A stretch of 64,000 bases of DNA, taken from Acidobacteriota bacterium. GTDB taxonomy: Bacteria; Acidobacteriota; Blastocatellia; RBC074. The notes under the pieces are model-generated. The model was given only the letters and a program-made list of their open reading frames with translations. It was not told the origin of the DNA and did no database searches. Below, one piece after another: positions 7,574 through 56,170 of the stretch (position 1 is the stretch's first letter; each line of letters begins with the position of its first letter). The translations under genes were made by a program, and so were the position numbers. The stretch spans positions 26,261 through 90,260 of the forward strand of contig JAHBSF010000006.1 of NCBI GenBank assembly GCA_019639255.1, given 5' to 3'.

Positions 7574-10307
7574 AGGTATTTACCTGAAGGTCATCTCCGT
7601 TGGTCGAAATCGTTATTGCGCCGCAAGCGCCCGTAGTGAGTACACGAGCGCCCGTACCCCTGATTCTCGACATCACATCCGTGTGCGGATGACCGAAAGG
7701 ACTGGGCGAGCCTGCCGAAACAACAGCGACCACGGGCTCGACGAGCGCGAGAAAATCGGGCGTCGATGAAGTGCGCGAACCGTGATGTGCAACTTTCAAT
7801 ACATCGGCGCTCAAATCCTCTCCCAAAGCTGCAAGCAGTCGCTCGCCGTGTTTCTCCAGGTCGCCCGTCAACAGAAAGCTGCGGTGACCAAATCGCAGTC
7901 GCAAAACCAGCGATCGCTCGTTGGGCGAGTTCTGCATCGGGGTTTTTCCAGGCTCCCGGTCGGCAACAGGAGCGAGTACTTCTATCGAAACCCCTTCGAT
8001 TTCAATCCGGTCTCCGCGACTCCAGCGCTCGTGCCGCACTGCTCTTCGTTCTACAACGGTATCGAACGGCGAAACCGGTTCTACCGTTGCGGATACGAGA
8101 GTTCCCAACCGAAACAGCCTTGCAAGTTCTGAAAAGCCTTCCACGTGGTCGGCGTGATTATGGCTCGCAACCGCCCAGTCTATTCGTTTTACTCCGTAAT
8201 GCCACAGAAAAGGAGCAACGGCGAGTTGTCCCGTTCCCGCGCGATCCTCTGCAAATTGAAACCCGGTTTCGTCCGCTTCTTTTATCGGAGCGCCAAACCC
8301 TGGACGGCCTCCGCTATCGACCAGCATCACGCTTCCCATTGGAAACGCAATGGCTATAGCGTCTCCCTGTCCCACATCCAGAAAAGACAGGCTCAACCTC
8401 CCGCGTTCAAACCGCGGCGAAACCGGCAAAACGAGCATAAGCCCCGAAATCAGCATCAGCGAAAGCCATGCGCCCCAGGCCTTTCGCCGCAATCCCGCGT
8501 CGTGTTTCAGATCCAGCGGATTCCACAGATCGAGCGTTGCTGCGAGCCCGATTGCCGACAATGCAAATAGAGGATAAAGAATCATCTCTGATGCAGCGTG
8601 ATCGGGCGCAAAGAGGTTTGCGTGCGAGGGCGTCGCAATCGTTTCCGCTGCGTCGAGGGCGAGTCTTCCCGTAGTGTCCAGAAGCGAAATGAGAACCGGT
8701 TCGGCTGCTGGCGCCTGAAAGTGAGCCAGCAGAAACAGTGCGCCGAGAATCATTGCGCAGATTACCAGCGCGCCTTCGGCGAGGTTGGCCGCAGGAGCGG
8801 CAAGGCTGACCCGGTGAAACAGGCGGATCGTCAACGGCAAAAGTACTATCTGCACGGTGATGGTCGTCAACATTGTAGCGGCTGCCCACCTGAGCGGGCG
8901 CTGTATACAGAGCTTTTCGGCCCACAATGCCGCCGGAGATTTCTTCAGTCGATACCTGATTGAGGATCTGCGCATCTGCTCTCTGAATCCTCTTTCGCTC
9001 CAGAACAACAGTTCGGCAATGGATCTGATCCAGGGACTAATGCGCGGAGGAAACGGAGTTCTTTCGTTCGGTTGCCATTCACCTGCGGCTTTGAAGCGCT
9101 GGAATACGGGACCGCTCACAAGCACGATCGCACCGACCGTAAGAAAGGAAAGCTGAAATGCGGGATTCAAAAGTTCGCGCGGATTGAGCGAGAGTATTAA
9201 AAGTGCTGCTGCCGCAAGTGCATTCGGTCCCTCAGATTCCCGCCAGAGCGCTCGTGCCAGGATCGCAAACGACAACATCCACGCTGCTCGCGTAACGGCA
9301 GGTTGCATTCCCACCATCACTGCATAGGCCCATACAATCGTCGTCAGAATAACGAACCTGAGCGTTCGTGAATGTGTAAGTCTTCGGATGATTGCGGCCA
9401 GCAGCACCGCTATGAGTGAAACGTGCAATCCCGAAATTACAAGCAGGTGAAATGTGCCGCCTGCGCGGAAACCCTCGCCCAATCTCCGATCGATGAAATG
9501 CCTGTTACCGAACAAAGCGGCAACGAGCAACCCTGAAGAAGGTTGCGGTATCCGCCGCAAGATAGCCGAAACCGATGAGGCGCGGATTCGGCCCAGTTGC
9601 CCGAATATTGAACTCGATCTCTTTGATAAGGTCTTTTCGATCAGAAGCGGGCTTTTTATATGCCCCACAGCATCCAGGTTACGCTCTTCCAGCCAGAGAT
9701 CGAAAGAGCGCACACCGGGATTTCGATACCCATGCGACCGGCGCAGGTAACAGTATGCCCATACGCCTTCGCCATAGTCGAGGGCCAGTCGATCATATTC
9801 ACGGCGTTCATCATCATCGGCGAATGCTACGGTGAGGCGTACCCGGCCCGAAGCTGCAAATACTCGTCCGAGTGTAGCGACCCTATCAACGCTTAAAGTC
9901 AGAAGGATTCTTTCCGGCGCCGGTTCCGGCATCTCCAACAGGCGTCCCCACAGTTCTACGGGTTCATCGGAATCAAGTTCTCCCGACTCGATCAGAGTCT
10001 TGATACTGTCGGCTTCGGCATCAATCTGCTCACAACGTGCAAGCGCTCCTCCGGCGAAAAGAAATGCGGCAAAGAGAAATGCCGATGCAGACTTTGACCT
10101 TTGCAGCAGCACTGCTCCCGCAATTGCCCAGCCGGCAAGCGCGCCTGTGATCCAGATAAATAGCGGCGCCCGCAACAGCGTGCAGGCGAGAATGCCGGTT
10201 GCGAATGAAATAGTAAGATAAAACAGAGGCTGCTTTTGCAGCGCAAGTCGTGAGAACGTCAATCGGCGAGGCATGACTCGAACTCCGGTTTGGGTTCGAG
10301 GTGGCAA
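7557..10307 (-). CDS. comEC: DNA internalization-related competence protein ComEC/Rec2
   Basis: 916 aa with a polytopic membrane region, the competence domain, and a C-terminal metallo-beta-lactamase domain (HNHADHVEG ... LKVAHHGSRTSS). Confidence 0.9.
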   Translation of the reverse strand: MPPRTQTGVRVMPRRLTFSRLALQKQPLFYLTISFATGILACTLLRAPLFIWITGALAGWAIAGAVLLQRSKSASAFLFAAFLFAGGALARCEQIDAEADSIKTLIESGELDSDEPVELWGRLLEMPEPAPERILLTLSVDRVATLGRVFAASGRVRLTVAFADDDERREYDRLALDYGEGVWAYCYLRRSHGYRNPGVRSFDLWLEERNLDAVGHIKSPLLIEKTLSKRSSSIFGQLGRIRASSVSAILRRIPQPSSGLLVAALFGNRHFIDRRLGEGFRAGGTFHLLVISGLHVSLIAVLLAAIIRRLTHSRTLRFVILTTIVWAYAVMVGMQPAVTRAAWMLSFAILARALWRESEGPNALAAAALLILSLNPRELLNPAFQLSFLTVGAIVLVSGPVFQRFKAAGEWQPNERTPFPPRISPWIRSIAELLFWSERGFREQMRRSSIRYRLKKSPAALWAEKLCIQRPLRWAAATMLTTITVQIVLLPLTIRLFHRVSLAAPAANLAEGALVICAMILGALFLLAHFQAPAAEPVLISLLDTTGRLALDAAETIATPSHANLFAPDHAASEMILYPLFALSAIGLAATLDLWNPLDLKHDAGLRRKAWGAWLSLMLISGLMLVLPVSPRFERGRLSLSFLDVGQGDAIAIAFPMGSVMLVDSGGRPGFGAPIKEADETGFQFAEDRAGTGQLAVAPFLWHYGVKRIDWAVASHNHADHVEGFSELARLFRLGTLVSATVEPVSPFDTVVERRAVRHERWSRGDRIEIEGVSIEVLAPVADREPGKTPMQNSPNERSLVLRLRFGHRSFLLTGDLEKHGERLLAALGEDLSADVLKVAHHGSRTSSTPDFLALVEPVVAVVSAGSPSPFGHPHTDVMSRIRGTGARVLTTGACGAITISTNGDDLQVNTFTKCE

Positions 10308-14085: not shown

Positions 14086-14090
14086 AAAAT

Positions 14091-14447
14091 AGAGAATAAC
14101 GGAACGGAGGGAATAAATACTCTGTAAACAAAGTGTTTGAGTTTTTCAGCCGCGGAGCGGCGAAAGATCTGTAGCCCAGGGCGTAAGCCCTGGGTAGGTG
14201 TAGAGAAGCGGCGCCAGCCCCGGAGGGGCGGAAGATCTTTCGCCCCTCCGGGGCTCTGACGTTTTTCGCCTGCTGACCTGGCGCTCACGCACCAGGCTAC
14301 AGATCTTTCGCCGCTCCGCGGCTGAAAAACTCAAACACTTTGTTTACAGAGTAATAAACGGAACAAACGGAAAGCAATTCCCTGTTTTCTTTCCGTTTGT
14401 TCCGTTTATTCCGTCTGTTCCGTTATTCTCTCTTTTATGACGGGCGG
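14091..14447. repeat. family-A element A3, split by insertion of family-B element B1
   Basis: Left arm AGAGAATAACGGAACGGAGGGAATAAA (14091-14117) and the remainder ATAAACGGAACAAACGGAAAG...CTTTCCGTTTGTTCCGTTTATTCCGTCTGTTCCGTTATTCTCTC plus tail (14354-14447). ATAAA is duplicated on both sides of B1. The tail supplies the last codons and stop of nadC. Confidence 0.8.
14118..14353. mobile_element. family-B non-autonomous palindromic element B1 (~236 bp) nested in A3
   Basis: Termini TACTCTGTAAACAAAGTGTTTGAGTTTTTCAGCCGCGGAGCGGCGAAAGATCTGTAGCC... and their inverse ...GGCTACAGATCTTTCGCCGCTCCGCGGCTGAAAAACTCAAACACTTTGTTTACAGAGTA. The ~120-bp internal segment is inverted relative to copy B2. Flanked by ATAAA/ATAAA. 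Confidence 0.85.
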
Positions 14448-18875: not shown

Positions 18876-18955
18876 CGTCAGACTCCAACGGCCCTGCAAT
18901 TTTTATCAGTCCATAGCAGACCATAACAGACTGGTACACACAACGAGGTCCGCAA

Positions 18956-19025
18956 CTGGGTACGCACGCGCCCTCGCGTGCGTTCGGCGGCGAATGAAAG
19001 CACGCGAGGGCGCGTGCGTACCCAG
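18956..19025. repeat. family-C GC-rich hairpin repeat, copy C1
   Basis: CTGGGTACGCACGCGCCCTCGCGTGCGTTCGGCGGCGAATGAAAGCACGCGAGGGCGCGTGCGTACCCAG. About 24-bp GC stem with an 18-nt loop and no U-tract. Near-identical copy at 51465-51534 with related extended flanks. Confidence 0.85.
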
Positions 19026-19045: not shown

Positions 19046-19148
19046 TGGTCTGATTTAGATAACGGAACAAACGGAACAGGACGAAACATACGAATAGAAG
19101 TTCTCAATTCGTTTGTTCCGCCCTGTTCGGTTTGTTCCGTTGTCGATT
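19046..19148. repeat. family-A element A4
   Basis: TGATTTAGATAACGGAACAAACGGAACAGGACGAAACATACGAATAGAAGTTCTCAATTCGTTTGTTCCGCCCTGTTCGGTTTGTTCCGTTGTC. Sits directly beside C1. Confidence 0.8.
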
Positions 19149-24820: not shown

Positions 24821-26281
24821 ATGACCGAACCGCCGCTTCAGGGCGCTGAAATCATCGCCGCTCGCGCTGTGAAGGAATTTTTTCGCAATCTTTCAGAAGG
24901 CCGGTTTGCCCGCAATCAGGCGGCAGAACTTCTGGAACTGACTGCGGACCCGGAATCCGCGCAAATCGGGCTTCGCGCCCTTTTTGCGGATCTGATCGAA
25001 CGGCTCAACGATTCGTTCGATCCCGGATTGTGCGCCGTGCACGATAAGCTCCTCGCACAGATGATCGAGTTCTATCGCCGCCGTCCCGAATGCGCATTGC
25101 TCGATGCAACGCTCGATTCGTTTGGACTGCGCGATGAACACGATTTGCTCGCACGCAGAAATTCTCTGGGTTCGAAATGTAATCCCCTCGAATTTGAGCG
25201 AATACAACGAGTGCTCGCGTTGTCCCGCGTCACTATCGGCGCCGATGTAGCGGTCACAAGCGTGATAATAAACCAGTTGAACCGGGCCGTCCCCGGCGCT
25301 GAAATCGTATGGATCGGGCCGCATAAACTCGCCGAACTTTATGGCGGAGATCCCGGAATCAGGTTGCGTCCACTCGATTATGCGCGCACGGGCCGGGTCG
25401 TTGACAGATTGAACGCCTGGCTCGGCCTTCTGGATGCTATAAGGGATGAAATGCGAGGCTTTGACCCTGCCCAAGTGCTGATTGTAGACCCCGATTCGAG
25501 GTTGACGCAGCTCGGGATGCTGCCCGTAACCTCTGAGGATAGAAACTATCACTTCTTTGAAAGCCGCAGTTATCGCGCGCAGGGAAGCGATGCGCTTGGA
25601 GAGCTTGCGGCGCAATGGAGCGAGGAAAGATTTCCGGCAACCGGACGGGAACATGCTCCATCCCCGTCTCCGTTTCTCTGCCTGCCCGATCATATGGCGC
25701 AGTCGGGAGCCGAAAACCTAAGGCGGTTTCGTTCGGGCAGGAGCCATCCCGTCACCTGCGTCAGTTTCGGCGTCGGAGGAAACGATCTCAAACGCGTTTC
25801 CGAAGAGTTTGAACTGGAGTTGCTCGCGCGGTTGGCAATGAACTCATTGCTGATACTCGACAGCGGCGCATCCCCGCAGGAGATCGCATCAACAGATCGT
25901 ATTGTCGGGCGGCTTCGAGAAACGGGCAGGATCGTTGCTGTTGGAACAGAGCACGCACAAATGCCCCTGGATATCGACCTCGCCGAAGTGTTGGTCTGGC
26001 GCGGCGGCATCGGATCTCTTGCCGCGATTGTGCGGGCCTCCGACATATATGTCGGTTACGATTCGGCGGGTCAGCACATAGCTGCGGCTTTCGGCGTTGC
26101 GTCACTAACAGTATTTGTCAATAACGCAACACCGAAGTTTGCCGCGCGATGGCGACCTACGGGGCACGGGGCAATCGAGGTGCTGGAACTTTCTCGCCGG
26201 GATGCCGACTCCGTGCGCGCCTCCGATCTGGCTGACGAAGTGTTGCGCATAAGAAAAAAGAGAGATAACGGAACAAACTAA
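24821..26281 (+). CDS. glycosyltransferase family 9 (heptosyltransferase-like) protein
   Basis: C-terminal YVGYDSAGQHIAAAFGVASLTVF matches the GT9 motif (GNDSGPMHLAAALG-P-V-LFG). About 487 aa. The last 6 codons (RDNGTN) and the stop are encoded by repeat A6. Confidence 0.6.
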   Translation: MTEPPLQGAEIIAARAVKEFFRNLSEGRFARNQAAELLELTADPESAQIGLRALFADLIERLNDSFDPGLCAVHDKLLAQMIEFYRRRPECALLDATLDSFGLRDEHDLLARRNSLGSKCNPLEFERIQRVLALSRVTIGADVAVTSVIINQLNRAVPGAEIVWIGPHKLAELYGGDPGIRLRPLDYARTGRVVDRLNAWLGLLDAIRDEMRGFDPAQVLIVDPDSRLTQLGMLPVTSEDRNYHFFESRSYRAQGSDALGELAAQWSEERFPATGREHAPSPSPFLCLPDHMAQSGAENLRRFRSGRSHPVTCVSFGVGGNDLKRVSEEFELELLARLAMNSLLILDSGASPQEIASTDRIVGRLRETGRIVAVGTEHAQMPLDIDLAEVLVWRGGIGSLAAIVRASDIYVGYDSAGQHIAAAFGVASLTVFVNNATPKFAARWRPTGHGAIEVLELSRRDADSVRASDLADEVLRIRKKRDNGTN

Positions 26282-26394
26282 ATAAGACGAAACAGACGGA
26301 AAGGTTGAATATTTCCGTCTGTTTCGTCTTATTTAGTTTGTTCCGTTATCTCTATTCTTTCAGCGAATTTCGAGGTTTCTACTGGAATTCGACC
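26260..26394. repeat. family-A element A6 (core plus tail) spanning the convergent stops of two genes
   Basis: GAGAGATAACGGAACAAACTAAATAAGACGAAACAGACGGAAAGGTTGAATATTTCCGTCTGTTTCGTCTTATTTAGTTTGTTCCGTTATCTCT followed by the tail ...TTCTACTGGAATTCGACC. The GT9 stop (plus strand) and the propeller-protein stop (minus strand) both lie inside it. Confidence 0.85.
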
Positions 26395-33631: not shown

Positions 33632-33650
33632 CTTTGGGAAGCGACGGCAG

Positions 33651-33769
33651 GAGAGAGATAACAGAACAAACGAAATGAAACGAAAATTACTGACAGAGCA
33701 AATATTTCAGTCTGTTCCGTCTATTTTCGTTTGTTTAGTTATCTACAGTGGTTTCGATTTTGGTGTTAA
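33651..33769. repeat. family-A element A8 (core plus tail), its palindromic tail interrupted by B2
   Basis: GAGAGAGATAACAGAACAAACGAAATGAAACGAAAATTACTGACAGAGCAAATATTTCAGTCTGTTCCGTCTATTTTCGTTTGTTTAGTTATCT, then tail ACAGTGGTTTCGATTTTGGTGTTAA. The inverted partner of the tail resumes at 33998-34025 (CTTAACACCAAAATCCAAACCGCTGTA). Confidence 0.8.
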
Positions 33770-33997
33770 GTACTCTGTAAACAAAGTTTTTGAGTTTTCA
33801 GCCGCGGAGCGGCGAAAGATCTGTAGCCTGGTGCGTGAGCGCCAGGTCAGCAGAAAAAGAACGTTTGAGCCCTGAAAGGGCGAAAGATCTTCCGCCCCTC
33901 CGGGGCTGGTACGGCTTCTCTACACTCACCCAGGGCTCGCCGCCCTGGGCTACAGATCTTTCGCCGCTCCGCGGCTGAAAAACTCAAAAACTTTGTT
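33770..33997. mobile_element. family-B element B2 (~228 bp), inserted at the TTAA centre of a palindrome
   Basis: Same ~57-bp terminal inverted repeats as B1. The internal ~120 bp is the reverse complement of the B1 interior. Flanked by TTAA (33766-69) and TTAA (33998-34001). Confidence 0.85.
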
Positions 33998-34066
33998 TAC
34001 AGAGTACTTAACACCAAAATCCAAACCGCTGTAATATCCCGACTGTGTGTGGTTTTGATTGGTTGA

Positions 34067-37157: not shown

Positions 37158-37320
37158 ATGCGGAAATTTGGTACGAAGCGGAAGACAGCCAGAGAGATAA
37201 CGGAACAAACGAAATGAAACGGAACAAACGAAAATATTCAACTTTTCCGTAATTTTCGGTTCCTTTCGTTTGTTCCGTTATCTCTCTTTTACGCCCCGAT
37301 GTCATGTGGTTTGATTTAAC
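37158..37320. repeat. family-A element A9 (full length with both tails)
   Basis: Left tail ...AAATTTGGTACGAAGCGGAAGACAGCCA, core GAGAGATAACGGAACAAACGAAATGAAACGGAACAAACGAAAATATTCAACTTTTCCGTAATTTTCGGTTCCTTTCGTTTGTTCCGTTATCTCTC, right tail TTTTACGCCCCGATGTCATGTGGTTTGATTTAACGG. The ftsY ATG follows 20 nt later. Confidence 0.85.
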
Positions 37321-42288: not shown

Positions 42289-42382
42289 ACAGATAACGAA
42301 ACAAACTAAACCCGACGAAAACCACGGAAATCGCCGAGTATTTCGTTTGTTCCATTTCATTCCGTCTGTTCCGTCATCTTTC
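42289..42382. repeat. family-A element A10
   Basis: CAGATAACGAAACAAACTAAACCCGACGAAAACCACGGAAATCGCCGAGTATTTCGTTTGTTCCATTTCATTCCGTCTGTTCCGTCATCTTTC. Sits between the convergent rnj and DUF2227-like genes. Confidence 0.8.
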
Positions 42383-44048: not shown

Positions 44049-45032
44049 ATGCCGGAAAATTCGGGGACTGATCAGGTGAGCCAGCCGCGCGCTTACGGCG
44101 AGGATTTTCATCCACCGACGCTTGTACGGCGGGTTGTGGGGGAAAATACGTGGTTGCGCCGGGGAGATCTGCAGCCGGAAGGTGTGCTGGTGGAGTGCAA
44201 GTCAAACGCCGTAGAGCCTGAAGTGCTGCCTAATGAGGCTTCAGTGGGCGCGGCGATGCTGGCCGAGCTGGAAGCAACGGCGGCCGAGAAAACGGGTGAT
44301 GTTGTTATACTACTGCTCGGCGGGCGCGGTGGGCAAGCGCTTCACAGATTGCTCGGCGAGCGGGCGCGGAGCGGTCCCGACGAACTCATCAAGCGGCTCC
44401 GCGTATTCACGCAGGATGCGCTTGCGCCGATGCGCATGGACAACAGTTTGAGTTTCGTGCGGGATTTCGAGCGGCTTCTGGGGCCGGAATTTTTCGCGCA
44501 GGTCAAAAGCTTTACGCCGATTCGCACGGATGCCGAAGATCTGGAAAGCGAGCTTTACCACTACGTCAACGAACTGGAATCGCTCGGCGGCGTGGATATT
44601 TTCTTTCTCGGGCACGGACCCGAAGCCGCAGCGGCCTCGCACCTTGCTTATATCAGACCGAACTCGGGTGCGACTGCGGTAGACATTGCCGGGTTGATTC
44701 CGATTTCTTCGAGCATACTCGAACACCACATAACGAAATTCAGGGCCGGAGGCAGCGAGATCCGTCCCGAAGACGAATCCGAATGCCGGCGGGCTTCGCA
44801 CATTCTGACGCTAGGGCCGGCCGCGATCCTCGGCTCAAAAAAACTCGTGCAGTCGATAGTCGATGCTGATACGGCGCCCGCAAAGCGCGCAAGCTACCGG
44901 CGCGTGCGTGAAACGGTCATATCCGATGATGCGGCCGAACGCGCCCGTCAACTGGATGAAAATCCCGGATTGTGGATACGCCTGCATCCGAACGTCAGAT
45001 CGTTTGTGCTTCCGAATGTTGAAGAGGGATAA
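44049..45032 (+). CDS. glucosamine-6-phosphate deaminase / 6-phosphogluconolactonase-like (NagB/Pgl superfamily) protein
   Basis: VVILLLGGRGGQALH ... FFLGHGPEAAAASHLAY resembles the ialsGG / LGmGeDGHtAS motifs of the NagB/Pgl family. The last 3 codons (EEG) and the stop are encoded by repeat A11. Confidence 0.55.
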   Translation: MPENSGTDQVSQPRAYGEDFHPPTLVRRVVGENTWLRRGDLQPEGVLVECKSNAVEPEVLPNEASVGAAMLAELEATAAEKTGDVVILLLGGRGGQALHRLLGERARSGPDELIKRLRVFTQDALAPMRMDNSLSFVRDFERLLGPEFFAQVKSFTPIRTDAEDLESELYHYVNELESLGGVDIFFLGHGPEAAAASHLAYIRPNSGATAVDIAGLIPISSSILEHHITKFRAGGSEIRPEDESECRRASHILTLGPAAILGSKKLVQSIVDADTAPAKRASYRRVRETVISDDAAERARQLDENPGLWIRLHPNVRSFVLPNVEEG

Positions 45033-45100
45033 CGGAACAAACGAAAGGAAACGAAAATTACGGAACGGTTGTATATTTCCGTCTGTTCCGTTCTCTCTCT
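45026..45100. repeat. family-A element A11 (short variant)
   Basis: GAGGGATAACGGAACAAACGAAAGGAAACGAAAATTACGGAACGGTTGTATATTTCCGTCTGTTCCGTTCTCTCTC. Confidence 0.8.
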
Positions 45101-50523: not shown

Positions 50524-50686
50524 CGATCCACATCAGATTGGTACAAAGCGTGATAAAGCAAGAGAGATGACGGAACAAACGAAATGAAACGAAAATTACG
50601 GAAAATTTGAATATTTTTGTAGTTTCCGTCTTATTTCGTTTGTTTCGTCATCTCTCTTCGAAGTCGTGTGGAGTGATTCAATCGAG
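50524..50686. repeat. family-A element A12 (full length with both tails)
   Basis: ...CACATCAGATTGGTACAAAGCGTGATAAAGCAA, core GAGAGATGACGGAACAAACGAAATGAAACGAAAATTACGGAAAATTTGAATATTTTTGTAGTTTCCGTCTTATTTCGTTTGTTTCGTCATCTCTC, then TTCGAAGTCGTGTGGAGTGATTCAATCGAGC. Followed by TAAGGAG and the ATG at 50703. Confidence 0.85.
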
Positions 50687-51449: not shown

Positions 51450-51464
51450 AACGCCCTAAACCGA

Positions 51465-51534
51465 ACTGGGTACGCACGCGCCCTCGCGTGCGTTCGGCTG
51501 AGAATGAAAGCACGCGAGGGCGCGTGCGTACCCA
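51465..51534. repeat. family-C GC-rich hairpin repeat, copy C2
   Basis: CTGGGTACGCACGCGCCCTCGCGTGCGTTCGGCTGAGAATGAAAGCACGCGAGGGCGCGTGCGTACCCAG. The right flank (GTTGCGGACTCCGTAGTGTGTACCA...TGTGGATTGATTTAG) is the inverted counterpart of the C1 left flank. Confidence 0.85.
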
Positions 51535-51658
51535 GTTGCGGACTCCGTAGTGTGTACCATTCTGCTGTGGATTGATTTAGGGTTTGATCCGTTATCTCAC
51601 TTCTACTGATTCCTTCGGGGAGGTATTTCTGGCGCACCAGAGTGCACAATCTGAAAGC

Positions 51659-55620: not shown

Positions 55621-56055
55621 ATGACTGTAGTCGCTGAAAAAAGTCGGAAACCGATCAGAGAAGGGTTGTTTGCGGAAGATGCGAACGGCGTGAGTCTGAT
55701 CGGCGGGCGGTGTCGGGAATGCGCTGAAATCGTATTCCCCGCCAATCCCTTTTGCCCGCGGTGCTGTCGCGAGACGACCGAACCCGTTGCACTCTCTCGG
55801 CGCGGAGTGCTTTACAGCTTCACCGTGCAGCGTTTCAAACCGCCGCCGCCATATCGCGGACCCGATCCTTTCGTCCCGTACGGCGTAGGTCTGATAGAAC
55901 TGCCCGAGGGGCTGCGCATAACTTCGGTGCTCAAGGCGGAACCGGACGACCTTCGCGTCGGGATGGAAATGGAGCTAGTGGTCGAGGGGTTTTTCGAGGA
56001 CGAGGACGGCAACGAAATACTGGGCTACAAGTTTCGCCCGGTGGAAGAGAGATAA
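55621..56055 (+). CDS. DUF35 Zn-ribbon + OB-fold protein (thiolase partner; ChsH2-C-term/IpfE-like)
   Basis: GRCRECAEIVFPANPFCPRCC (rubredoxin-like Zn ribbon) followed by an OB-fold segment. The last codons and stop (...EER*) are encoded by repeat A13. Confidence 0.75.
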   Translation: MTVVAEKSRKPIREGLFAEDANGVSLIGGRCRECAEIVFPANPFCPRCCRETTEPVALSRRGVLYSFTVQRFKPPPPYRGPDPFVPYGVGLIELPEGLRITSVLKAEPDDLRVGMEMELVVEGFFEDEDGNEILGYKFRPVEER

Positions 56056-56170
56056 CGGAACAAACTAAATAAGTCGGAAACTACGAAAATATTCAACTTT
56101 TCCGTGATTTTTGTTTCATTTCGTTTGTTTCGTTATCTCTTATGCCCCAGTGACGAGCAGAGTGATTTAG
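56047..56170. repeat. family-A element A13 (core plus right tail)
   Basis: GAGAGATAACGGAACAAACTAAATAAGTCGGAAACTACGAAAATATTCAACTTTTCCGTGATTTTTGTTTCATTTCGTTTGTTTCGTTATCTCT, then TATGCCCCAGTGACGAGCAGAGTGATTTAG abutting the ATG at 56171. Confidence 0.85.

Follow-up and report, generated by a model that had tools for sequence, protein, structure and literature searches.

The B2 locus and its concentric layers

The DNA analyzed here is a 64,000-nucleotide (nt) stretch of an Acidobacteriota metagenome-assembled genome (MAG; GenBank assembly GCA_019639255.1, contig JAHBSF010000006.1, positions 26,261 to 90,260), referred to as the window, which contains two copies, B1 and B2, of a hairpin-forming repeat. 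B2 lies in the spacer between alaS and the gene for a MacB/FtsX-type permease, both on the plus strand, together with A8, a copy of the AT-rich palindromic repeat family A. B1 is flanked by two minus-strand genes, nadC and a biotin ligase gene. The genes near B2 are alaS and those for the ABC permease, an amidotransferase, and an MFS transporter, with no recombinase among them. B2 is probably the inner 236 nt of a nonautonomous fold-back element of ~289 nt, derived from an IS200-type insertion sequence (IS) and similar to miniature inverted-repeat transposable elements (MITEs) and to REPINs, the hairpin-forming doublets of repetitive extragenic palindromes (REPs).

The block is built of concentric inverted repeats (Table 1). 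A core of paired hairpins is enclosed by the P1 arms of ~30 nt, present in both B1 and B2, and at B2 alone these are enclosed by the 26-nt arms of P2; the inverted repeat at B2 measures 59 nt, or 85 nt with P2 counted. The P2 arms (33745-33770 and 34007-34033) are reverse complements with two mismatches (T/C and C/G), B2 lies exactly on the dyad of the P2 palindrome, and the core lies exactly on the dyad of the P1 layer. An earlier, sequence-only reading of this DNA had described the flanks of B2 as reverse complements and had placed B2 at their dyad axis, and both points hold. Its choice of TTAA as the center is less secure, since the palindromy continues past TTAA, via G/C, into the terminal repeat of B, and the center can equally be read as GTAC. 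Without interruption, the P2 palindrome (52 nt) would read GGTGTTAAGTACTTAACACC or GGTGTTAACACC and the P1 palindrome (60 nt) GAGTTTTTCGAAAAACTC. The P2 20-mer GGTTTCGATTTTGGTGTTAA has no other occurrence in the window (none expected in shuffles), and the right P2 junction was also found in Logan contig L002, which begins at window position 33992. Derivation of P2 from a degenerate A arm or from a copy of P1 was rejected, as local alignments were no better than shuffles (p = 0.2 to 1.0).

Both terminus motifs of A8 were located by a Hamming scan. A8 ends where the P2 palindrome starts, and P2 is absent from the A consensus. Because A8 is complete and the palindrome is not A sequence, B2 adjoins A8 and is not inside it; only B1 truly lies within an A copy (14086-14432), in its left arm, 32 nt into the span.

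Alignment and orientation of B1 and B2

Both B1 and B2 start with TACTCTGTAAAC and end with GTTTACAGAGTA. In pairwise alignment, B1 was collinear over its full length with the reverse complement of B2 (score of 375, 91.6% identity over 237 columns), whereas against forward B2 (score of 240) only the 59-nt termini (96.6% and 98.3% identity) and the palindromic center matched. Thus, the interiors are mutual reverse complements, as had been read by eye, and the terminal repeats that were then called identical are nearly so. Within each element, the 59-nt terminal repeats are near-perfect inverted repeats, and single strands of both elements fold into extreme hairpins (-124.5 and -116.6 kcal/mol, z of about -22).

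Between B1 and the reverse complement of B2, the arms differed at 3 of 118 positions (2.5%) and the interior at 17 of 118 (14%). Two of the arm differences, G>T at position 18 and C>A at position 219, are a complementary pair in which both arms changed together, and a further compensatory pair (129/133) lies in the central hairpin of the interior. These differences show concerted, compensatory evolution of the arms, which stay complementary and conserved, and B1 and B2 are not recent copies of each other.

A choice between opposite insertion orientations and a recombination-mediated flip had been left for the inverted interior. Opposite orientation is the sufficient and parsimonious account: with near-perfect inverted arms, an element that is turned around shows the same ends and a reverse-complemented middle. 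Since there is no asymmetric marker outside the arms, a flip and a turned element look alike. A flip is physically plausible but unnecessary, and both copies have, base for base, the same orientation in two assemblies that are 0.65% apart. An inverted interior between perfect inverted repeats is therefore a statement of orientation only, a tempting signal that is empty.

The second assembly is the NCBI contig JAHCHF010000006.1 (GCA_026129895.1, an "Acidobacteria bacterium" MAG whose relatives are labeled Blastocatellia), to which the window is 99.35% identical. The comparison (L001 and L120) gave substitutions, 137 over 21.1 kb and 23 over 6.9 kb, and no indels. The substitutions cluster in some genes, 35 of them within one kb near 37 to 38 kb, and none of the 137 and 23 differences lies inside either repeat complex. 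Several window proteins had exact matches only in Logan contigs of SRR12908343. The window thus derives from a sister strain or a sister assembly, probably the MAG that bears the locus-tag prefix KF868. Short-read Logan contigs break within the B repeats, and beyond the window ends only short ones, broken in repeats, were obtained.

A third, partial copy, P0001 (hypothetical protein MBX3278465.1), was found with a B-derived peptide; back-translated, its peptide is consistent with the first ~18 nt of one P1 arm. It appears to belong to the same MAG, judging from the accession series of MBX3276943.1, a permease identical to that of the window. The B terminus TACTCTGTAAACAAAGTNTTTG gave a single chance match among 185,579 species genomes, none in JGI metagenomes, and no further copy in the window. 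The chance match lies in an Anaerolineae MAG and is not continued by B sequence, so it was rejected as a copy of B.

An empty site in a close relative

For comparison of the alaS-permease spacer, three closer relatives were drawn from the 90% cluster of the permease. L128 shares 97.7% nucleotide identity with the window in the permease gene and 97.2% in alaS, and its ortholog of A8 is 96.5% identical over 86 nt. The occupied site in the window reads ...GTTATCT, followed by the block (ACAGTGG...CCGCTGTA) and then by ATATCCCGACTG... The empty site in L128 reads ...GTCATCT-CTT-ATGTCCCG..., with CTT in place of the block at 33745-34033 (the sequence after CTT is also given as ATGTCCCGACTG...). The block had no BLAST match anywhere in L128 or L129. 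The state in L128 is ancestral and not a deletion, because the A8 end there, ATCTCTTAT, agrees with the usual end of the A family. It is also a real allele, since it contains bases absent from the occupied one.

Since the whole block is missing beside A8 in L128, the P2 palindrome arrived together with B2, as its outermost arm layer, and was not a resident target. A single insertion of ~289 nt would be simpler than two successive dead-center insertions within ~2% divergence; the nesting may record history at an earlier site. The sequence-only reading had seen a B element nested in a resident A palindrome and had taken P2 for the palindromic tail of A8. That picture is not borne out at this locus: A8 is complete at ~33744/5, the palindrome is not A sequence, and arms and B2 are both missing in L128. 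An empty site in a close relative can thus overturn a "nested insertion" reading.

At B2, no duplication was evident beyond a possible TA, with the junction set to ±3 nt. L128 has a TA at about the right place (CTCT-TA-TGTCC), and a TA duplication at B2 would need extra indels on both sides. At B1, a comparison between the arms of the host A copy suggested that ATAAA, present on both sides, was a 5-bp duplication. However, L129 (permease gene 93.8% identical) has a B-free A copy from the subfamily of this host copy, and its left arm already reads GGAATAAAAATAAACGG, so the doubled ATAAA preexists in the A subfamily. B1 would then have added at most nothing, and one base may be lost. Among the duplications considered, TTAA fits B2 only, and only with a 238-nt element; ATAAA fits B1 only and is preexisting A sequence; and a 3-nt TAA likewise fits B1 only. 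These three were discarded. TA fits both copies and is indistinguishable from the repeat end, TA being self-complementary. Taken together, the junctions support no target duplication longer than TA for B1 or B2, while a 2-bp TA is possible.

Palindromic elements turn over fast at this spacer. L128 has the same A8, L129 an A copy of another subfamily, and L126 a hairpin of CGCGGAA units, and the unit shifts between CGCGGAA and ACGGAAC in close species. In L126 the short hairpin is followed by a T-rich run that is terminator-like by eye, and in the window the hairpins of A8 and B2 take the place of this hairpin and T-run. L006 (71% amino acid identity) has an unrelated 80-nt hairpin in the same spacer, and L004 and L005 have almost no spacer. 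The spacers of the distant relatives L004 to L006 (71 to 80% amino acid identity) and of L126 (~90% nucleotide identity) are too diverged to place the insertion.

The core and its link to a Y1 transposase

In B1 and B2 alike, the Rfam family RF01687 (Acido-Lenti-1) matched at each arm-interior junction; the left match is on the minus strand and the right one on the plus strand. The curated gathering score of 37 bits was passed by both matches in B1 and one in B2, and the second B2 arm scored just under it (Table 1). The motif runs in the order hairpin 1, CUA, linker, hairpin 2. On the opposite strand it reads hairpin 2, GAAAGATCT, GTAG, hairpin 1, that is, a GTAG-tagged REP-type stem-loop plus an outer hairpin. 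Each side of the core has the layout hairpin 2, AGATCT linker, GTAG, hairpin 1, and the two sides stand around a central palindromic module. In B1 the GTAG stem-loop reads ...GATCT-GTAG-CCCAGGGC-GTAA-GCCCTGGG, and each arm, like the metagenomic copies, has a counterpart of it.

A scan with the internal 20-mer GCGGCGAAAGATCTGTAGCC returned 113 metagenomic stretches, which, by their contig names, would come from soil and rhizosphere samples. The unit in these stretches starts with AGCCGCGGAGCGGC and ends with GCCGCTCCGCGGCT, and 53 unique doublets of ~195 nt had the same architecture; the B core (14148-14323 and 33800-33976) corresponds to this unit with a shortened center. The P1 arms were absent from all 53 doublets. 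Complementarity between the flanks of these doublets was at background, barring a short A/T run in one subfamily, and the idea that the family generally sits inside palindromes was accordingly dropped. No target duplication was found in the 53 doublets, and the flank logos of the 32 oriented doublets showed no conserved flanking target.

Some of the stretches depart from the doublet layout. The motif also forms 70-nt tandem arrays of hairpin 2, AGATCT linker, GTAG, hairpin 1, and a conserved spacer (L030, 5349-5700; L094, 720-1000), one of which adjoins a transposase gene; the Acido-Lenti-1 seed of Lentisphaera has the same 70- to 200-nt spacing. In one subfamily (L023, L047, L068, L069, and L091), the ends are extended asymmetrically, by GAGAAAAA at one end and by TTTTTCCGACAGACTC at the opposite end; in L069, the element and 16 further nt lie between the two copies of an 18-nt direct repeat, CCGACGCAACCCCGTTGG. 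These ends hint at true boundaries and at target rules that may differ between subfamilies.

In L022/L090, L060, L067, and L094, a gene for a 150-amino-acid protein lies between the halves of the unit. The protein scored 97.7 bits with Pfam Y1_Tnp and 76.7 bits with the NCBIfam IS200 model (cutoff of 55), and with 41.4 bits it failed the cutoff of 80 of the NCBIfam model REP_Tyr_transpos for REP-associated tyrosine transposases (RAYTs). Its nearest solved structures are the TnpA proteins of ISDra2 and IS608; among public names, close homologs are called "RayT", and a 71%-identical one is called "REP-associated tyrosine transposase" (NCBI). All Y1 matches in a tblastn search of 739 kb, none of them in the window, adjoined the motif (L022/L090, L060, L094, L067, and L051). 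RF01687 matches above the threshold stand on both sides of the gene in L022 and L060, minus at the left and plus at the right, as in B. In L051, tnpA is internally deleted, with the first ~13 and last ~25 codons left between the same ends, and this copy is thus a deletion intermediate. The doublets keep GAAAC...GTTTC where the transposase gene was, and the central module of B2 (33868-33907) occupies the position of the transposase gene in the autonomous relatives.

The core is thus homologous to both ends of IS200-type Y1 transposase elements. Because the motif brackets the Y1 gene, L051 provides an intermediate, and GAAAC...GTTTC is kept, the core is read as what is left of an IS200-type element that lost its gene and kept its inverted hairpin ends. 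We found no paper in the library searched that ties Acido-Lenti-1 to a transposase. This orphan Rfam family, which has stood since 2010 as a small RNA without an assigned function, is now tied to IS200-type ends, which calls for a change of annotation, and IS200-type Y1 elements with such ends are widespread in soil Acidobacteria.

Upstream of their left hairpin pair, the autonomous elements carry a conserved segment (Table 1), GATGCAAG-(loop)-CTTGC followed by TGTATTCTG, which corresponds to a small hairpin and a -10-like box and is lacking in the gene-less doublets. The functional unit would thus reach past the Rfam motif on the 5' side of the transposase gene.

Comparison with known systems

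Acido-Lenti-1 was published as a probable trans-acting small RNA, sometimes found near group II introns, and many copies in its seed lie 70 to 200 nt apart (Weinberg et al. 2010, PMC2864571). Both halves of the B core score as the 46-nt two-hairpin motif of this family, and the phylum (Acidobacteria) and the array spacing are alike. Unlike the published copies, those described here stand as inverted pairs at the ends of IS200-type elements and of gene-less derivatives, an arrangement that points to a role at the DNA level.

REPINs and other dimers of GTAG REPs occur with RAYTs (Bertels and Rainey 2011, PMC3116915), and Y1 genes with "double palindromic" inverted repeats have been reported from Acidobacteria as "TIRtron/TIRYT" (Di Nocera et al. 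2013, PMC3733652). Like a REPIN, B consists of two copies of a GTAG stem-loop placed head to head, with GTAG outside and a spacer between, that form one long hairpin, and as in RAYT systems, a Y1 gene is bracketed by the same repeats in inverted orientation (metagenomic L022 and L060). However, the transposase passes the IS200 model and fails the RAYT model, a second hairpin lies outside the GTAG at each end, and B has extra arm layers of 30 and 26 nt. REPINs reach copy numbers of tens to hundreds per genome; the copies of B number two in the 64 kb covered here, plus one elsewhere in a genome whose short-read contigs are broken by repeats.

The ends of IS200/IS605 elements are normally not inverted repeats, and insertion takes place 3' of a fixed 4- to 5-nt target. 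The relatives of B share with this family a Y1 HUH transposase, with the ISDra2 and IS608 TnpA proteins as nearest structures, and subterminal hairpins; as in its miniature derivatives, the metagenomic doublets show no target duplication and none could be demonstrated for B, and L051 is internally deleted. They differ in their inverted ends and in the lack of a conserved flank in the 32 oriented doublets. In IS200/IS605 miniatures the boundaries lie within ~20 nt of the hairpins, whereas the shared boundaries of B lie 30 nt (P1) and 56 nt (P2) outside them.

TA-duplicating MITEs, such as Correia elements and those derived from IS630, resemble B in size, intergenic site, long terminal inverted repeats (TIRs), TA ends, and nesting in repeats. 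Unlike these, B has no known parent element, its TA is not demonstrably duplicated, and its center is a Y1-type hairpin doublet. A further group, which includes ISRm22, IS1397, ISKpn1, and IS621, targets REP palindromes at their axis (Tobes and Pareja 2006, PMC1525189). B2 is similar in that a mobile element stands exactly on the dyad of a short extragenic palindrome; those ISs, however, are autonomous and enter abundant resident REPs, whereas the P2 palindrome occurs once in the window and, like B2, is missing from the empty site. B is thus a layered variant of the REPIN- and MITE-like derivatives of IS200-type elements, ordinary in kind and unusual in structure.

Proposed origin and alternative explanations

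In the proposed course of events, deletion of the gene between the two ends of a Y1 (HUH) element left the core as a remnant, and in the concentric element this core is enclosed by the P1 arms and, at B2, by the P2 arms. A Y1 transposase acting on the hairpins could have mobilized the element in trans, as a single strand. Speculatively, the outer layers might be the ends of carrier MITEs, or else flanking DNA that fold-back copying rendered symmetric. B1 and B2 are independent insertions in opposite orientations, and the ~289-nt element entered the alaS-permease spacer beside an older A8 after the split from the 97.7%-identical relative.

Several points weigh against this origin. The core and the lack of duplications fit the Y1 route, but the travel of the 30-nt and 56-nt layers is not explained by it. 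Canonical Y1 enzymes cut within about 10 to 20 nt of their hairpins, and such cleavage would leave behind P1, which ends 30 nt from the hairpins, and P2, which ends 56 nt from them. With two full copies and one partial copy only, the ends, target, and copy number are poorly defined. The 53 metagenomic doublets lack palindromic flanks, and the layering is not general in the family. The junction in L128 is not clean, with a 3-nt difference and substitutions in a spacer that is ~6% diverged. Moreover, tblastn found no Y1 transposase in the window, and among the best 120 protein-search matches, none was a homolog attributable to this MAG.

The travel of the layers could be accounted for if the element had grown from the inside out. 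The doublet would have been excised with a one-sided flank, the tail copied by fold-back, and the new arm carried along at the next move, P1 in this way being added first and P2 later. Such copying would explain both the concentric, unrelated, near-perfect layers and the compensatory change from arm to arm, as seen in two to three copies. We regard this route as unlikely; if true, it would be an undescribed way for a bacterial element to gain and lengthen terminal inverted repeats and would also recast the Acido-Lenti-1 "small RNA" as a DNA-level transposon end. Layered arms, if they prove regular, offer a handle on how hairpin elements gain new ends. Long perfect terminal repeats that stand between TA dinucleotides would likewise suit a TA-duplicating MITE of the DDE type, and that B is such a MITE or a stack of them is a minor possibility worth weighing. 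P1 and P2 would then be the TIRs of IS630/Tc1-like elements (TA-CAGTGG... and TA-CTCTG...) that captured the hairpin doublet, with the outermost repeat as the unit that moved. In favor, TA stands at either side of B1, of B2, and of the outer palindrome; divergence is much lower in the arms than in the interior (2.5% versus 14%), as in MITE families; and the empty site has its TA about where it would be expected. The self-complementary TA can, however, equally be the last two bases of the repeat, additional indels are needed at both junctions of B2 and one at B1, and neither the window nor scans of public genomes and metagenomes yielded a parent IS or any other element that ends in this way.

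Insertion of B2 into a resident 52-nt palindrome beside A8, at a TTAA or GTAC center that served as an extruded hairpin tip or a palindromic binding site, is quite unlikely. Y1 transposases take single-stranded DNA as their substrate, as that idea would want, and B2 is placed exactly on the dyad, as the core is on that of P1; insertion of ISs on the axis of REP palindromes is documented, for example for ISRm22 (PMC1525189). Yet L128 has A8 with neither the palindrome nor B2, so two insertions would be required within ~2% divergence. P2 is unique in the window, B1 lies off the dyad of its host A copy, 32 nt into 14086-14432, and palindromic flanks are missing from the 53 metagenomic doublets. 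Very unlikely, in turn, is that B1 and B2 were inserted the same way round and that one 118-nt interior was later inverted through its 59-nt arms by recombination or template switching. Long perfect inverted repeats do serve as substrates for inversions, the compensatory change at 18/219 implies that the arms exchange information or are coselected, and a third hairpin family in the window has an 18-nt loop that is turned around with respect to its asymmetric 35-nt flank. At unrelated loci with symmetric arms, however, "the same way round" has no meaning, and a later inversion explains nothing extra; sequence and orientation are identical in the two assemblies, and the orientation of such an interior is a weak point of a short-read MAG assembly. 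Finally, it is scarcely credible that the repeated unit encodes a small structured RNA, with B1 and B2 as two paralogous RNA genes and not mobile DNA, even though RF01687 matches above its curated threshold and was proposed from covariation in two hairpins (PMC2864571). The covariation is equally expected of single-stranded DNA that is recognized by a Y1 transposase, the motif is found in 70-nt tandem arrays and, as inverted pairs, on both sides of a transposase gene, the block is present or absent between close relatives, and the scan for expression signals gave one weak promoter-like site and no terminators. Descent from an IS200-type element remains the reading that we prefer for B2.

Other repeats in the window

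Table 1. Positions of the B elements, their layers, and other repeat features (window positions unless a relative or metagenomic stretch is named).
Feature	Position	Strand	Remarks
Inserted block (B2-long)	33745-34033		~289 nt; junctions ±3 nt, from alignment of the L128 spacer
B2	33771-34006	- (inverted relative to B1)	236 nt; defined by similarity to B1
Outer arm P2, left	33745-33770	+	ACAGTGGTTTCGATTTTGGTGTTAAG; the "palindromic A8 tail" of the earlier reading
Outer arm P2, right	34007-34033	-	CTTAACACCAAAATCCAAACCGCTGTA
Middle arm P1, left	33771-33799	+	TACTCTGTAAACAAAGTTTTTGAGTTTTC; common to B1 and apparently to the third copy, P0001
Middle arm P1, right	33977-34006	-	Position 18/219 differs from B1 on both arms
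Core, B2	33800-33976		~176-nt head-to-head doublet of GTAG-tagged hairpins
RF01687 match, B2	33800-33846	-	37.4 bits (gathering score, 37)
RF01687 match, B2	33929-33976	+	35.5 bits, slightly below gathering score
Central module	33868-33907		Two short GC hairpins flanking AGATCT
B1	14118-14353	+	236 nt; found by reading and terminus scan
P1 arms, B1	14118-14147, 14324-14353		
Core, B1	14148-14323		
RF01687 match, B1	14148-14194	-	46.9 bits
RF01687 match, B1	14277-14323	+	37.4 bits
A8	33655 to ~33744/5		Complete ~91-nt AT-rich palindromic A copy, GAGATAAC...GTTATCT
A copies, part 1	1128-1218, 5530-, 14086-14432, 19056-19146, -21582, 26262-26352, -28685, 33655-33745		
A copies, part 2	37194-37284, 42290-42380, 45026-45097, 50564-50654, 56049-56139, 59513-, -61829		
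alaS-permease spacer	Window 33632-34066; L128 2425-2573; L129 1513-1665; L126 2423-2482; L006 9899-10000		
Conserved upstream segment	L022 9590-9643; L060 6420-6478; L067 100-165 (reverse strand); L051; L094; L019		Autonomous elements

The third hairpin family has two copies in the window (18919-19025 and 51464-51570), with perfect 26-nt GC-rich arms (CTGGGTACGCACGCGCCCTCGCGTGC) and the 18-nt loop. A one-sided extension of 35 nt lies to the left of one copy and, reverse-complemented, to the right of the other, while the loops match in the same window orientation (16 of 18 positions); the loop has thus flipped relative to the rest. Both copies lie 30 to 45 nt from an A terminus, and a related hairpin, GGGTACGCGGGCG...CGCCCGCGTACCCAG, is present in L126 at 8786-8972.

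Family A comprises ~15 copies in the 64 kb, typically of 91 nt, which are AT-rich palindromes of 9- to 10-nt ACGGAAC/ACGAAAC units with the ends GAGATAAC...GTTATCTC. The family had no Rfam match. The terminator and promoter scan gave no canonical terminators, and its one weak promoter-like site lies in the right outer arm at B2. Of the 14 spacers in the 21 kb for which genes were called, 6 contain A copies, all 6 lying 3' of at least one gene. With A-runs before them and T-runs after them, the A copies look like two-way terminators.

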